DNA from: Candidatus Borrarchaeum weybense | GTDB taxonomy: Archaea > Asgardarchaeota > Sifarchaeia > Borrarchaeales > Borrarchaeaceae | NCBI GenBank assembly: GCA_019057385.1 | Contig: JAHQJS010000005.1 | Coordinates: 224,799-288,798, forward strand | DNA length: 64,000 nucleotides | Direction of reading: 5' to 3' | Part shown: in pieces, positions 23,776 through 37,667 of the stretch | How the letters are laid out: each line of letters opens with the position of its first letter | How positions within the stretch are numbered: the first letter of the stretch is position 1 | Translations under genes and position numbers: made by a program | The notes under the pieces: generated by a model | The model's input: only the letters and a program-made list of their open reading frames with translations | What the model was told of the DNA's origin: nothing | Database searches by the model: none

Positions 23776-23882
23776 TGGCGGGTCCGGCGAGATTTGAACT
23801 CGCGATCGCCCAGCAACATCGATATGATGGTTGCAATCAGGCTTAGGAGGCCTGTGCCCTATCCTGGCTAGGCCACGGACCC
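23776..23882 (-). tRNA. tRNA-Arg(CCU) with one intron at about 45/46 (23807-23835)
   Basis: GGGTCCG acceptor, A20, CAGGC-CTCCTAA-GCCTG anticodon arm, G73, encoded CCA; 29-nt hairpin insert in the variable region. Confidence 0.9.
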
Positions 23883-23969
23883 TTATTTTGAAGTTATGTT
23901 TTCAAGATTCTCCGCTAACAACTTAGAAAAATTATTGCATTTGTGGAGCACATAAAATCCTTTTCAAAA

Positions 23970-24107
23970 TGGCGGGTCCGATGGGATTCGAACCCATGAG
24001 TCGACGCACTCCTCCGAATTGAGGGAGAGCATTTCCGGCTTCGAAGGCTTACGCCCTAGACACAATGTGTCAAGGTCGGCGCCTCATCCAGGCTAGGCCA
24101 CGGACCC
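23970..24107 (-). tRNA. tRNA-Arg(UCG) with two introns (29/30: 24049-24076; variable region: about 24000-24031)
   Basis: Removing 28- and 32-nt hairpin inserts gives a 78-nt cloverleaf with CCGGC-CTTCGAA-GCCGG; exact register of the second intron is ambiguous. Confidence 0.88.
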
Positions 24108-27204: not shown

Positions 27205-27518
27205 ACATTAATAGAATATTTTCATTATTTAACAGAAGTCTAACCCCTCAAAAAGAGACATTTGCTTGAAAACAAGCTTATAGTGAACCTCAAATTCGTT
27301 TTAAGTTACTGAAATATTTGTATAAGGCGTTAATATTTTAAATGAATTAATGGATGATACTTTGTCCTTTTCATGTAAGAATAACAAAAGGACTCTAATC
27401 CCATTTCAAGAACCCAATCATTTTATTGATTATTGAACTCAAAAACTGGCAAGTAGGCTGCACTCTAAGAAAAAGAATTAGCAATTACTTGTTAAGGTCA
27501 TTAGGAGGAAAGAGTATA

Positions 27519-30506
27519 TTGAAAATGTCAAGAAAATTTACGCCAGTATCTATTGAAGAAACGATTTTGAAATTTTGGGAGGATAATAAGATCTATCAAA
27601 AAACGAAAGATTATCGAAAGGGCAAAGAAAAGTTTTACTTCTGCGATGGTCCCCCTTATACGACTGGGAGCATTCATTTAGGCACTGCATGGAATAAAAT
27701 CATCAAAGATTTCTTCCTCAGATACAGGCGCATGAGAGGTTATGACGTCTATGATCGCCCAGGGTATGATATGCACGGATTACCCATTGAAGTCGCTATT
27801 GAGAAGAAACTGGGCATCGAAACGAAAAAGCAAATCGTTTCATTTGGCGTGGAACGCTTTATTGAAGAATGTAGAGCATTTGCGATTGAAAACCTCAATA
27901 AGATGACAGAACAATTTAAAAGGTTAGCTGTGTGGATGGATTGGGAAGATCCGTACATGACAATCAAAGATTCTTATATCGAGGGTGCTTGGTGGGCACT
28001 TAAGAAAGCGTATGAAAAGGATCTTCTATACAAAGGCACGAGAGTATTGAATTCTTGCCCTAGATGTGAAACTGTTCTCGCTAAGCATGAGTATGAGTAT
28101 AAGACAGTTGGAGATCCTTCAATTTTTGTAAAATTTCAACTAAGAGACACGCCAAATGAATATTTCATAGTTTGGACAACGACACCTTGGACTCTCCCTA
28201 GCGACTTAGCAGTTATGGTACACCCAGAGTTCGAATACGTTCGTGCTCAGGTTGAAGATGAAATCTGGATCATTGGAAAGTTTGTCTCAGTAGGTATTAT
28301 TTCAGCAATGCTTGAAAAAAAATTCAAGGTAATCGAAGAAGTCACAGGTGAAATACTGCGGGAAAGAGGACTCCGTTATATTCATCCGCTCATTGAAGAA
28401 GTTCCTATTATGCAGGAATTTTATGAAAAATATCCGGAAGCACATTCTGTATTATTGAGCAGTGAGTTTGTAACGAAACTGCAAGGTACTGGTATCGTTC
28501 ATAGCTCTCCTGGGGCTGGACCTGAGGACTTTGAGGTAGGAACAAGATATGGACTTCCTCCTTTTTCGCCACTTGATGAAGCTGGACGTTTTACTGAAGA
28601 GGCTGGAAAATACGCTGGATTATTTGTTAAAGATGCAGATCCTATCATAATTGAGGATTTAAGGAGAAAAGGTCTGCTTCTTGCGACTCATCGAGTTGAA
28701 CACGAGTATGCTCATTGCTGGAGATGCAAGAGCCCTTTGATATTTCAAGCTACAAGCCAATGGATGTTGAATTTAACGAAAGAAAAAGAAAAGATTCTTG
28801 CAGAAAATGACAAAGTTAAATGGTCTCCAGATTGGGCAGGTAGTCAGAGTTTTAGGAGCTGGTTAGAAAACCTGCAAGATTGGTGCATTAGTCGACAAAG
28901 ATATTGGGGTATACCTCTACCGCTCTGGATTTGCGATGCATGTGAATCTATTGAGGTTATAGGATCAAGAAAAGAACTATTAGGTATGTATGGAAAACCT
29001 GTTGATGATTTTCACCGACCTTGGATTGATGAGGTAACATGGGTTTGTGCCTGTGGTGGTACCTTTCGAAGGGTACCCGATGTATTAGACGTTTGGCTGG
29101 ACAGTGGCGCAGCAACATGGGCTATCTTGCCCTATCCTGAAGATCCTAAAACCTACGATTACTGGTGGCCTGCCGACTTCATTTTAGAAGGTAAAGATCA
29201 AGTTAGAGGCTGGTTCAACTCACAAATCTGTCTAAGTGTTGTAGCAAACGATAGGAGACCTTACGAGGCAGTTTATATGCATGGTTTTGTTGCAGATACC
29301 GAGGGACGGAAAATGAGCAAATCTTTAGGAAATGCAATTGAACCCAGTGCCGTTATTGAGAAGTATGGCTCCGAAGCGTTTAGATTCTATTCTTTAGCTA
29401 CACCTCCAGGCGAAGATATGAAATTCGATTTTAAAACTCAACAGGATTACTTCAAAATTCTGAATATTCTTTGGAACACTTACATGTTCGCAATATCACG
29501 AGTCAAAGAGTCCAACTTTAATGTACAGGACCATTCTCTCGATACTGCTGAACTTCAGATAGAAGATAATTGGCTTATTTCGCGTTTCCACTCTGCACTT
29601 AACAAGATGACCCGCGCCTTCGAAGCAATGCGCCCGGGAGATACAATTCCCATTATGCAGGAATTAATTGTTGAAGACATAAGTAGATGGTATATTCGCC
29701 TAATCCGAGAACGCACATGGATTTCTGAGTCGGGATCAAGCAAAGCAACTGCACTTACTACCCTTGTAACTGTCCTCACAGAAACTGCCAAGATGTTTGC
29801 TCCTGTTCTCCCAATAATAGCAGAATCAGTCTATCAAAATTTCATTCGTGAACAATATCCTGATTTGCCTGAGTCTATCCATATGTGCGATTGGTCTGAA
29901 GTTAACGAATCATTCCGTGATGAAAAACTAGAAAATGCTATGAAAGACGCACGAAAAATTGTAGAACTTACTCTAGCGCTTCGAGATGAGCATAATATCA
30001 AATTAAGATGGCCTTGTAAGAGACTCGTTGTGATATCGAAAGAAGGTTTTGGTGATATATCAGAAGTAATTCCCGCAATCGTTCACGAGGCAAATGTAAA
30101 AGATGTGCTTGTAACTGAAACGTTACCTAGTTCAACAGAACATTTAGTTGGTATGGTAAGCGATTCATTTGACCTCTACCTCGATTTAGAAATCACTGAT
30201 GAAATTGCCTCAGAAAGACTTGTAAGAGAATTCATGCGCCAAGTACAATTTACTCGAAAGAAAAACAGACTTAATGTAAGTGATCGTGTTGACCTCATTG
30301 TAGTAACTCAAGATGACAAAATCAGACAGTATTTAACAGAGTGGCGAGAAGAAATCATCGCAAAAGTCGGAGCGCAAAACTATGAGGCACAAAAGAACGA
30401 TATAGAAGAAGATTTTAAAGATCACTACCCCATATTCAGTGAATTGCAGTATGAGAATGCCAAAGTCAAAATATATATGAAAAAAACTTCCCTTTCTTCT
30501 AAATGA
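27519..30506 (+). CDS. ileS: isoleucine--tRNA ligase (archaeal/eukaryotic type)
   Basis: DGPPY..IHLGT, WTTTPWTLP, WCISRQRYWG and KMSKS; start TTG 27519 or ATG 27525 after GGAGG. Confidence 0.97.
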   Translation: MKMSRKFTPVSIEETILKFWEDNKIYQKTKDYRKGKEKFYFCDGPPYTTGSIHLGTAWNKIIKDFFLRYRRMRGYDVYDRPGYDMHGLPIEVAIEKKLGIETKKQIVSFGVERFIEECRAFAIENLNKMTEQFKRLAVWMDWEDPYMTIKDSYIEGAWWALKKAYEKDLLYKGTRVLNSCPRCETVLAKHEYEYKTVGDPSIFVKFQLRDTPNEYFIVWTTTPWTLPSDLAVMVHPEFEYVRAQVEDEIWIIGKFVSVGIISAMLEKKFKVIEEVTGEILRERGLRYIHPLIEEVPIMQEFYEKYPEAHSVLLSSEFVTKLQGTGIVHSSPGAGPEDFEVGTRYGLPPFSPLDEAGRFTEEAGKYAGLFVKDADPIIIEDLRRKGLLLATHRVEHEYAHCWRCKSPLIFQATSQWMLNLTKEKEKILAENDKVKWSPDWAGSQSFRSWLENLQDWCISRQRYWGIPLPLWICDACESIEVIGSRKELLGMYGKPVDDFHRPWIDEVTWVCACGGTFRRVPDVLDVWLDSGAATWAILPYPEDPKTYDYWWPADFILEGKDQVRGWFNSQICLSVVANDRRPYEAVYMHGFVADTEGRKMSKSLGNAIEPSAVIEKYGSEAFRFYSLATPPGEDMKFDFKTQQDYFKILNILWNTYMFAISRVKESNFNVQDHSLDTAELQIEDNWLISRFHSALNKMTRAFEAMRPGDTIPIMQELIVEDISRWYIRLIRERTWISESGSSKATALTTLVTVLTETAKMFAPVLPIIAESVYQNFIREQYPDLPESIHMCDWSEVNESFRDEKLENAMKDARKIVELTLALRDEHNIKLRWPCKRLVVISKEGFGDISEVIPAIVHEANVKDVLVTETLPSSTEHLVGMVSDSFDLYLDLEITDEIASERLVREFMRQVQFTRKKNRLNVSDRVDLIVVTQDDKIRQYLTEWREEIIAKVGAQNYEAQKNDIEEDFKDHYPIFSELQYENAKVKIYMKKTSLSSK

Positions 30507-30590
30507 CAAAGGTGTGGAAGAACTTCAAATAATGGAAATGGCGAGTGATCGAAAGATATTAAATAAAACACCTAATATTTCGTTACATGA

Positions 30591-30788
30591 GGGTCCGTGG
30601 CCTAGCCAGGTTAGCAGCGCTTCAATGTGCTGACCGAGGGGCGCCGGCCTTATATGACCTCGTCCCATACAAAGCAGGCCTAAGATAGCCGGAGACTGCC
30701 TGTTTCTTGCTATTACCGGCAGCCGAAGATCGCGGGTTCGAATGTCTTGAGCAAATCGCTCATTTCGAAAAGCCCGCCGGACCCACCA
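30591..30788 (+). tRNA. tRNA-Ile(UAU) with four introns (30614-30638, 30655-30686, 30695-30728, 30743-30771)
   Basis: Removing four BHB-bounded inserts gives a 78-nt cloverleaf GGGUCCGUGGCCUAGCCAGGUUAGGGCGCCGGCCU-UAU-AAGCCGGAGAUCGCGGGUUCGAAGCCCGCCGGACCCACCA with A73. Confidence 0.85.
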
Positions 30789-30868
30789 CTTTCTTCTTTT
30801 TAATGAATATTTTTATTCTCTATACTATCATTTTTCAAGAAACATTGAAAAGGTCATATTAAGAGGTA

Positions 30869-32758
30869 ATGACCATGTCCCCCTACAGGCAATTCGCAGA
30901 GGAATGCATTATACTTACACAGAAAACCCTTCAAGCTGTCTTTCCAGAACTATCAGTAACACTCAATCATGAAATTCCGGCTAAATTAGAGTTTGGAGAG
31001 TTGGCAGTTCCTGTTTTTCATATCGCAAAGAAAATAAACAAAAAACCCAAAGATCTTGCAGAAATTCTCATTGAAAATATCAACCCTTCAAATTCACGCT
31101 TCATAAAAGAAGTAGTAATAGGTGGAGCAGGCTATCTAAATTTCTTTGCAAATTATGATTCCTTTGCAAATCTCGTTATAAACTCAATAAGAACCCTGGA
31201 TACAAGTTATGGAAAAAGTGAAGCGAAGAAAAAGGAAAAAATTATAGTAGAATACTTGAGTCCAAATCCAAATTCTCCTTTGCATATCGGTCATGCACGA
31301 AATGCAATTCTAGGCAGTTCACTAGTCAAAGTTTTGCAAACACAATCTCATGATGTTTGTTCTCACATATATATCGATGATGTTGGTCGACAGGTTGCGA
31401 TATGTGTACAAGGTCTACGGATGGTAGATAGAGACACTCAGCCTTCAGACATGAAGTCAGACCAATTTGTAGGAACAATTTACACAATAACAAATGCACT
31501 TACTGAAATTCAGAAGGCAAAAAAGGAACAAAATGACTTAGCTGAATGGGAATCAATCGCAGAAGAATTAAAAAAAGCACAGCCTAGTATTTTCGACCAG
31601 ATTAGTAATAACTCAGAAAATATCGACTTAGATGCGGAAATATCGACCCTCATATCTCTTTATGAAAATCAAGATGAACAAACTGTTCAACTTTTCAGAA
31701 GTCTTGTTGATTTAGTTCTTGGAGGATTTAAGGAGACCTTCAAAACAATTGATATAGCTTTCGAAAGCTATGATTGGGAAAGTTCGTTCATCTGGGATGG
31801 AAGTGTTACAAAGATTTTAAACGAACTAAAAATGACACCTTTTGTTACAGAACTCGATGGTGCATTAGTCTTCGATTGTGAGAAAGCTGCAACTGAATTT
31901 AATATTAAAGAGAGTTTGGGGGTTAAAGAAACTCATGAAATTCCTCCTATGACTTTAATGAGATCTGATGGCACGACTCTTTATACAACACGGGATATAG
32001 CATACAGTAAATGGAAACTTGATCAATCAGATCGCGTAATAAATGTTATAGGGAAGGAACAGACACTTCCACAACTTCAGATAAGAATAGCTTTGTATGT
32101 ATTAGGTGAAGATGGTAGCAGACAGATTCATTATGCCTATGAACTTGTTAAACTTCCAGAATTCAAAATGTCAAGTCGAAGGGGACGTTATATTGGTTTT
32201 GATGATCTAATAGATGAGGCGACAACGAGAGCTCTAGAGGAAGTTAACACCCGTTCACCGCATTTATCCGAAGATGAGAAAAGAAGTATTGCTGAAGTAG
32301 TTGGGATTGGTGCTGTAAAGTATTCTATCTTAAACGCCGTGCCGACCAAAATTGTGACATTCACATGGAATAAAGTACTCGATTTTGAGCAGAATAGCGG
32401 GCCTTTCATTCAATATGCACATGCAAGAGCATGTAATATTCTTAAAAAAGCAAAAAAAACTCCTAAAACAGCCAACTACAATTTGGTAGATGAAGAATTA
32501 GAAAAACTTCTTGTCCAAAAACTTTCACTATTTCCAGAAATTATATCGAAAGTGGCTGAGGAATTACGTCCAGACATTGTATGTGAGTACGCAAACAACC
32601 TAGCATCGATATTTAACTCATTTTATGCTTCTATACCGGTATTAGCAGCTGAAACCGATGAATTAAGGAATTTACGTTTATTAATTGTTAATAGTGTGCG
32701 AATCGTGTTAAGAAATGCCTTGAAATTGATGGGAATTGTTGCCCCATCGAGAATGTGA
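30869..32758 (+). CDS. argS: arginine--tRNA ligase
   Basis: SPNPNSPLHIGHARN, RSDGTTLYTTRDIAY, KMSSRRG, QYAHAR, C-terminal RM. Confidence 0.97.
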   Translation: MTMSPYRQFAEECIILTQKTLQAVFPELSVTLNHEIPAKLEFGELAVPVFHIAKKINKKPKDLAEILIENINPSNSRFIKEVVIGGAGYLNFFANYDSFANLVINSIRTLDTSYGKSEAKKKEKIIVEYLSPNPNSPLHIGHARNAILGSSLVKVLQTQSHDVCSHIYIDDVGRQVAICVQGLRMVDRDTQPSDMKSDQFVGTIYTITNALTEIQKAKKEQNDLAEWESIAEELKKAQPSIFDQISNNSENIDLDAEISTLISLYENQDEQTVQLFRSLVDLVLGGFKETFKTIDIAFESYDWESSFIWDGSVTKILNELKMTPFVTELDGALVFDCEKAATEFNIKESLGVKETHEIPPMTLMRSDGTTLYTTRDIAYSKWKLDQSDRVINVIGKEQTLPQLQIRIALYVLGEDGSRQIHYAYELVKLPEFKMSSRRGRYIGFDDLIDEATTRALEEVNTRSPHLSEDEKRSIAEVVGIGAVKYSILNAVPTKIVTFTWNKVLDFEQNSGPFIQYAHARACNILKKAKKTPKTANYNLVDEELEKLLVQKLSLFPEIISKVAEELRPDIVCEYANNLASIFNSFYASIPVLAAETDELRNLRLLIVNSVRIVLRNALKLMGIVAPSRM

Positions 32759-37528: not shown

Positions 37529-37667
37529 AGCCCGGTGGTGTAGCGATGTGGATGATTTTTATCCCATTGCAAATTGGCCAAGCATAGTGGGCTTTGGACT
37601 CGCTGAGAATTATCTAACCTTATTACGATAATTCGCGGAAACCCCAGTTCGAATCTGGGCCGGGCTA
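37529..37667 (+). tRNA. tRNA-Gln(UUG) with two introns (16/17: 37545-37573; 45/46: 37606-37640)
   Basis: AGCCCGG/CCGGGCT acceptor, GTGGG-CTTTGGA-CTCGC arm; both inserts are hairpins bounded by a 4-bp helix and 3-nt bulges. Confidence 0.88.

Follow-up and report, generated by a model that had tools for sequence, protein, structure and literature searches.

The locus at positions 30591–30788 of the window (the whole 64,000-nt stretch of DNA analyzed here) raises the question of whether a tRNA gene can be functional when 120 of its 198 nucleotides are intron and, if so, how its transcript is matured and how exceptional such a gene is. The locus is a real tRNA-Ile(UAU) gene on the plus strand. 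It reads AUA, is built of five exons and four short introns, encodes its CCA end and has orthologues in relatives. We consider it very probable that, taken as a whole, this is a functional gene with four BHB introns matured by EndA and RtcB, that the product is the likely sole AUA decoder, that intron 4 arrived late and that the anticodon intron tends to leave after the variable-loop and D-loop introns.

All features of the gene lie on the plus strand, and the introns occupy Sprinzl sites 21/22 in the D-loop, 37/38 in the anticodon loop, 45/46 in the variable loop and 59/60 in the T-loop. The cut sites are set by the BHB rule, a 4-bp helix between two 3-nt bulges with cleavage after the second bulge nucleotide. 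Exon 1 (23 nt, 30591–30613) contains the 5' strand of the acceptor stem, U8, the 5' strand of the D-stem and the D-loop up to A21. It is followed at 21/22 by intron 1 (25 nt, 30614–30638), whose central helix AGGU/ACCG forms three of four pairs with an A·G mismatch and whose outer helices are GCC/GGC and CAGC/GCUG. Exon 2 (16 nt, 30639–30654) contributes the 3' strand of the D-stem, G26, the 5' strand of the anticodon stem and C32, U33, U34, A35, U36 and A37, and its sequence is invariant across all relatives compared. Intron 2 (32 nt, 30655–30686) sits at the canonical 37/38 site with all four pairs of the central helix CUUA/UAAG formed and the anticodon stem as outer helix. Exon 3 (8 nt, 30687–30694) supplies A38, the 3' strand of the anticodon stem, A44 and G45. 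Intron 3 (34 nt, 30695–30728) at 45/46 has the central helix CCGG/CCGA, again with three of four pairs (C·A mismatch), and the inner helix CUGCC/GGCAG. Exon 4 (14 nt, 30729–30742) carries A46, U47, C48, the 5' strand of the T-stem and U54 to A59. Intron 4 (29 nt, 30743–30771) at 59/60 has a fully paired central helix UUCG/CGAA and uses the T-stem as outer helix. Exon 5 (17 nt, 30772–30788) completes the gene with G60, the 3' strands of the T-stem and acceptor stem, A73 and CCA. An initial annotation of the locus had listed a 198-nt gene with four introns of 25, 32, 34 and 29 nt at these sites and with these helices, and all of its numbers check out on parsing.

The 5' end GGGUCCG and the 3' end CGGACCC-A-CCA of the gene are complementary over the acceptor stem. 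ARAGORN identifies the spliced 78-mer as tRNA-Ile(tat), and it folds as a cloverleaf with every stem paired. The acceptor stem has 7 bp, the D-stem 4 bp, and the anticodon stem and T-stem 5 bp each, with a D-loop of 10 nt. The anticodon loop is CUUAUAA, the 5-nt variable loop is AGAUC and the T-loop is UUCGAAG, and the characteristic tRNA positions A14, G18G19, U33, purine 37, the UUCRA T-loop and the discriminator base (A73) are all in place. A cloverleaf-constrained search, in which jumps are allowed only over BHB candidates, finds exactly four introns at the locus with zero stem mismatches. Both results uphold the earlier proposal that cuts after the second bulge nucleotide leave a normal 78-nt cloverleaf. 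The unspliced gene gives no RF00005 match at 30591–30788 at the gathering threshold, as expected with 120 nt inserted, and it is not called by ARAGORN either, so the suspicion that standard finders would miss it is borne out for two of them. When introns are removed in part, ARAGORN returns Ile(tat) only with introns 1, 3 and 4 or all four out; the other combinations give nothing or a spurious call.

A TATA-like box TATTAAATA (30557–30565) is centered about 30 nt upstream of G1 and reads as a putative promoter, and B. yapensis has the similar TTTTAAATA at the equivalent position. A T-rich run 3' of the CCA (30790–30801) is a putative terminator and is kept in all orthologues. The tRNA gene lies between the genes for IleRS (27426–30506) and ArgRS (30869–32758). 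The order IleRS, tRNA-Ile(UAU), ArgRS (27426–32758) is also found in B. yapensis and Yap75.

The genomic context suggests why such a tRNA would be needed. The search for TiaS (TiaS_FLD, PF08489) covered two 100%-complete genomes of the genus, this one and a congener, and gave no hit in either. In the two flanking genes 39 of the 134 Ile codons are AUA, and in comparison with the B. yapensis orthologues AUA is exchanged with AUU, AUC, GUA and UUA and never with Arg codons. Judged from these exchanges, AUA behaves as an isoleucine codon. With its UAU anticodon, A37 and A73, the tRNA has the features of an AUA decoder of TiaS-less archaea. The tRNA survey of the genome (a BHB-plus-cloverleaf search that recovered about 30 of about 45 expected genes) contains only two CAU genes, one initiator and one elongator-type. 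Since TiaS was not found and AUA is frequent as Ile, the tRNA-Ile(UAU) is probably the sole AUA decoder, as far as a survey of that coverage can indicate, and is probably essential. Its charging with isoleucine would fall to IleRS, and if it is the only tRNA reading AUA, all four excisions would be needed for growth. Among the Asgard genomes sampled, 44 of 81 have TiaS; the sister family within the class has it too, and whole families are without it. The loss of TiaS together with the gain of tRNA-Ile(UAU) may have occurred several times among Asgard archaea.

The body of the tRNA is less easily placed than its anticodon. Its identity to the Arg tRNAs of the genome is 81–85%, reaching 84–85% for Arg(UCU), Arg(GCG) and Arg(CCU), the D-stem is of the Arg type and the gene adjoins ArgRS, all of which could be read as recruitment of a UAU tRNA from an arginine tRNA, not charged, or not only charged, with isoleucine. 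We regard this as very unlikely. The mature sequence is also 81% identical to Ile(GAU), and the two have in common the GGUUA D-loop, the UUCGAA start of the T-loop and A73. In E. coli tRNA-Arg the major arginine identity elements are A20 and C35. Both are changed in the tRNA-Ile(UAU), and the exchanges of AUA are with Ile, Val and Leu codons as described above. Ile(GAU) itself was located by hand; a regex search for its anticodon arms was too noisy. Recruitment from tRNA-Arg, strong against the automatically recovered set, became weaker once Ile(GAU) was added. By sequence identity, the origin of the tRNA body appears ambiguous between the Ile and Arg families. Decoding of AUA as isoleucine by this tRNA remains the preferred reading.

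Comparison of ArgRS gives Candidatus Borrarchaeum yapensis (89% identity), the Borrarchaeota MAG Yap75 and Candidatus Sifarchaeum marinoarchaea as nearest relatives, all in one GTDB genus, and an orthologous tRNA gene is found upstream of ArgRS in all three. B. yapensis has the same four introns; 77 of 78 nucleotides of the mature tRNA and 109 of 120 intron nucleotides are identical, and the flanks are 75–81% identical. In Yap75, 72 of 78 nucleotides of the mature tRNA are identical, and the differences include the compensatory change of U4-A69 to A4-U69. Introns 1–3 of Yap75 measure 31, 50 and 44 nt and are about 58% identical, with the motif-forming ends conserved and indels only in the loops. 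Intron 2 is 50 nt long in Yap75 and 37 nt in L027, and the loop alone varies. In intron 3 a compensatory change affects the sixth pair of the inner helix, with G-C for B. yapensis against U-A for Yap75. The first pair of the intron 1 helix is A·G here, C-G in B. yapensis and U·G in Yap75 and in run X5. The same three allele types recur in six further metagenome contigs. The entire gene is covered without a gap by contigs X6 and X7, which come from independent studies, and in run X6 26 of 28 differences fall outside the gene and the other two within intron 4. Gap-free independent contigs and differences mostly outside the gene indicate that the locus is not an assembly artefact and that the gene is under constraint. 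Joints of intron-less DNA alleles were sought in four contig runs over the gene and none was found. At position 30608 of the window, A17a is replaced by U in run X5, from an independent study; the resulting change of A·G to U·G is a natural variant with a better splice motif.

This record of change is hard to reconcile with a decaying pseudogene, that is, a one-time tRNA gene that insertions have overrun and whose transcript is not matured any more. Conservation is 92–99% in the exons, against diverging flanks and, in Yap75, diverging introns; the acceptor-stem change in the relative is compensated, every stem of the spliced product is perfect, the promoter-like and terminator-like flanks are conserved, and AUA is heavily used as Ile although TiaS was not found. 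Decay is highly improbable on these grounds, even though two of the four motifs carry a central-helix mismatch and a 212-nt Ile-TAT gene of Atabeyarchaeia-2 was flagged "possible pseudo" by tRNAscan-SE (PMC11291895).

The relatives also date the introns. Intron 4 is absent from Yap75, from Sifarchaeum marinoarchaea (truncated contig) and from L026 and L030, and their T-loop TTCGAAG is identical to the predicted spliced junction. No relative lacking introns 1–3 was seen among those compared. Two genomes of the same genus with three introns and a T-loop equal to the predicted junction point to a recent gain of the 59/60 intron, which this comparison places on the branch shared by this genome and B. 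yapensis, and introns 1–3 are older than the genus. A donor for intron 4 was looked for among the other 18 T-loop introns of the genome, and the best identity of 22 of 29 nucleotides equals the 95th percentile of the shuffled controls, also 22. The chief value of the gene is thus comparative: the empty 59/60 site in congeners dates an intron gain within the genus and at the same time checks the intron boundaries.

All four introns are picked up independently by a genome-wide BHB scorer, and each has a 4-bp central helix, two 3-nt bulges on opposite strands and at least one outer helix. The scores for central, outer and inner helix are (3,3,5) for intron 1, (4,5,1) for intron 2, (3,1,5) for intron 3 and (4,5,1) for intron 4. 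Introns 2 and 4 therefore have a full central helix and almost no inner helix, and introns 1 and 3 are relaxed, with three of four central pairs. Given the mismatches in introns 1 and 3 and the near-absent inner helix in introns 2 and 4, three of the four motifs count as relaxed forms. When the introns are shuffled, a BHB score at least as high as observed arises with P = 0.002, 0.010, 0.0017 and 0.032 for introns 1–4; the product of the four values, about 1e-9, is partly circular since the motif helped to define the boundaries. At the scorer threshold, BHB-like motifs arise by chance at about 0.3 per nucleotide genome-wide, and about 25 candidates lie within this gene; a preprint also states that such motifs are cheap on their own (bioRxiv 10.64898/2026.10.13.758758). 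As chance motifs are common, the motif alone is weak evidence, and what carries the case is the cloverleaf product together with the comparative data. Short repeats at the junctions leave the cut register of introns 1, 3 and 4 ambiguous by 1–3 nt (in intron 3 an AGA repeat at both junctions allows up to 3 nt). A wrong intron count, with the 45/46 insert being two small introns (five in total) or some inserts being retained in the mature RNA, is scarcely credible: the search did also give an alternative with five introns, in which intron 3 is replaced by two of 20 + 14 nt, but this costs one anticodon-stem mismatch and alters the variable loop, the four-intron parse is mismatch-free, the intron 3 helices are retained in Yap75 through changes on both sides, and the product is the same whatever the register.

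The genome encodes the enzymes expected for four introns of this kind. There are two EndA paralogues. The first (208 aa) keeps the catalytic His and has as best match the alpha chain of Aeropyrum pernix (3p1z_B); its best matches are catalytic alpha chains from the heterotetramers of Aeropyrum, Sulfolobus and Pyrobaculum. The second (223 aa) is beta-like and has Ala at the position of the catalytic His. The two genes lie in the regions of C4:663774 and C5:195898. The pair suggests an alpha-beta architecture, a quaternary structure deduced from these similarities, and EndA of the alpha-beta type is linked to relaxed and non-canonical motifs (PMC4090602, PMC5829648). The RtcB ligase is encoded as well, and the genome accordingly has both an endonuclease of the type for relaxed and non-canonical motifs and a ligase. 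Maturation would then proceed from a primary transcript of about 200 nt with four short introns, each of which would pair with adjacent exon nucleotides into a strict or relaxed BHB motif. The alpha/beta-like EndA would cut in every bulge, and the five exons would be ligated by RtcB to give the 78-nt tRNA. In evolutionary terms, introns 1–3 were in place before the genus arose, and the T-loop intron entered later, in the lineage of this genome and B. yapensis, at the commonest intron site of the genome.

Two of the four motifs are not independent of each other. Nucleotides 40–43 (CCGG) serve twice: in the 37/38 motif they are the 3' strand of the outer helix, the anticodon stem, and in the 45/46 motif they are one strand of the central helix. 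As these nucleotides are common to both, the 37/38 and 45/46 motifs are mutually exclusive, which confirms the competition for the CCGG strand described in the initial annotation, and they would never be formed together on one molecule. Each motif was forced in ViennaRNA across all 15 splicing intermediates, and the resulting values describe protein-free thermodynamics. The 37/38 motif costs 10.0 kcal/mol in the full precursor, 3.9 kcal/mol with intron 3 out and 2.1 kcal/mol with introns 1 and 3 out. The 45/46 motif costs about 12 kcal/mol in any context, that of intron 1 about 5–6 kcal/mol nearly independently of context, and that of intron 4 6.2 kcal/mol independently of context. Removal of the 45/46 intron thus cheapens the 37/38 motif by about 6 kcal/mol, and the reverse removal gives no help. 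Without the enzyme every motif is disfavored in the folding model, by about 6–12 kcal/mol.

In this model the 45/46 and D-loop introns probably leave before the anticodon intron. The earlier statement that splicing must be ordered is too strong, as folding gives an in-silico tendency and refolding could permit either order. An obligatory order is a plausible hypothesis. A more specific proposal holds that the 45/46 and D-loop introns are obligatorily removed first and that the anticodon intron is kept to the last because, like that of eukaryotic tRNA-Ile(UAU), it serves an intron-dependent modification of U34/U36 that blocks misreading of AUG by the UAU anticodon; this we consider unlikely. 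If it were true, it would be an Asgard–eukaryote parallel in AUA decoding without TiaS. Motifs that share nucleotides 40–43 are in any case a simple test case for ordered splicing.

Among known systems, the Thermoproteales, whose multi-intron tRNA genes were reportedly described by Sugahara et al. in 2008 with up to three introns, are similar in that relaxed BHB motifs occur at sites including 45/46 and 59/60, EndA is of the alpha-beta type and introns have proliferated at a few preferred sites. They differ in belonging to another phylum and in their maximum of three introns per gene, against four here. A second parallel is the nuclear tRNA-Ile(UAU) gene of a eukaryote, the red alga Cyanidioschyzon merolae (PMC3728597, PMC9602550). 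It has three introns, and the anticodon intron is lost last as determined by RT-PCR (PMC9602550), whereas the same order is a predicted, in-silico tendency here. Closer in decoding are the TiaS-less archaea with a UAU-anticodon tRNA-Ile, namely ARMAN, Nanoarchaeum equitans and Korarchaeum cryptofilum (PMC3239211, PMC6000648). There, too, TiaS is absent and UAU replaces the agmatidine-modified CAU. Their genes have a single intron, however, which in ARMAN-2 is at the canonical 37/38 site, and the one-intron gene of Korarchaeum is clearly derived from Ile(GAU) (PMC3239211, PMC6000648), unlike the ambiguous Ile/Arg origin here.

The number of introns is not new. The initial annotation took three introns per tRNA as the known maximum, a figure that held for Thermoproteales and is now out of date, and it had staked novelty on four-intron archaeal tRNAs not already being commonly catalogued. 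By that criterion novelty fails, because four-intron Asgard genes were tabulated in 2024 by Valentin-Alvarado et al. (PMC11291895). Their Supplementary Data 4, which has columns for a fourth intron, lists such genes for Arg-TCT, Ile2-CAT and Leu-GAG of Freyarchaeia and Trp-CCA of Atabeyarchaeia-2; Lys-TTT of Atabeyarchaeia-2 has four introns by tRNAscan-SE and three after manual R2DT review (PMC11291895). An October 2026 preprint on 90 Asgard genomes reports as many as five introns in a single gene and, for three families, 2.2 intervening sequences per gene (bioRxiv 10.64898/2026.10.13.758758). It names Borrarchaeaceae and Sifarchaeaceae as heavily interrupted and puts the figure for Borrarchaeaceae at 2.12 per gene, half of which escape tRNAscan-SE, mostly in the D-arm (bioRxiv 10.64898/2026.10.13.758758). 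The gene described here resembles these published Asgard genes in carrying several short BHB introns, some at canonical and some at non-canonical sites, and in a D-arm intron of the sort that annotators miss. It is unlike them in that the gain of the fourth intron falls between sequenced congeners, some of which still show the empty site. The published Asgard accounts, in the portions compared, contain no description of the Ile(UAU) gene of the Borrarchaeum genus or of its intron set. The gene is a well-documented further example and neither a record nor a new mechanism. It is a clean example of a probably essential tRNA that requires four cut-and-join events, in a lineage where annotation routinely overlooks genes of this sort.

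Within its own genome the intron number of tRNA-Ile(UAU) is unexceptional. The survey finds one to four or more introns in nearly all recovered genes, and counts per gene are lower bounds, with Trp (C5:182 kb), Pro-UGG and Asp partly parsed. Relaxed search thresholds lead to false solutions with 5–6 "introns" beside real T-arms. An elongator-type tRNA-Met(CAU) (C5:191113–191309, plus strand, 197 nt) needs four removals, with inserts of about 43, 16, 32 and 29 nt. A tRNA-Glu(CUC) (C6:275683–275935, minus strand, 253 nt) needs at least four, with inserts of about 45, 34, 67 and 29 nt; the insert of 67 nt may itself consist of two introns. Three introns each are found in Ile(GAU), Lys(UUU) and Arg(GCG). 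Site 59/60 is filled in at least 18 genes and is the commonest intron site of the genome. Only about 14 archaeal tRNAs in the genome reach the Rfam cut-off, and about two thirds of the tRNA set are invisible to standard models. In its lineage, in the interruption of most genes and in the presence of several introns including D-arm introns, the genome conforms to the heavily interrupted Asgard pattern.

The window itself illustrates this, with at least four tRNA genes and one visible to standard tools. An unannotated tRNA-Arg(UCG) (23969–24107, minus strand, 139 nt) carries two introns, one (about 28 nt) in the anticodon stem close to 29/30 and the other (about 31 nt) at 45/46, and is missed by both ARAGORN and Rfam. 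It lies directly upstream of tRNA-Arg(CCU) (23779–23882, minus strand), which has one 29-nt intron at 45/46 and is the sole tRNA of the window found by Rfam. A tRNA-Gln(UUG) (37529–37667, equal to C5:262327–262465, plus strand) with two introns of 29 and 35 nt was found by our own search.

Elsewhere in the genome, several 59/60 introns, those of Val(CAC) (C4:78186–78320), Val(GAC) (C4:332584–332718), Pro(UGG) (C5:184757–184954) and a locus near C8:121990, have a GGAA-AGAGAGA ... CUCUUUCUGAAAA pattern in common. The pattern exceeds what the motif requires and hints at copying of one intron between tRNA genes; the Ile(UAU) intron is outside this group. Contig C1 (179 kb) is unlike the other contigs: it carries 14 tRNA genes that are compact, free of introns and tightly clustered, and another RtcB gene, broken by a stop or frameshift. 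The 7% contamination estimate probably stems from this contig.
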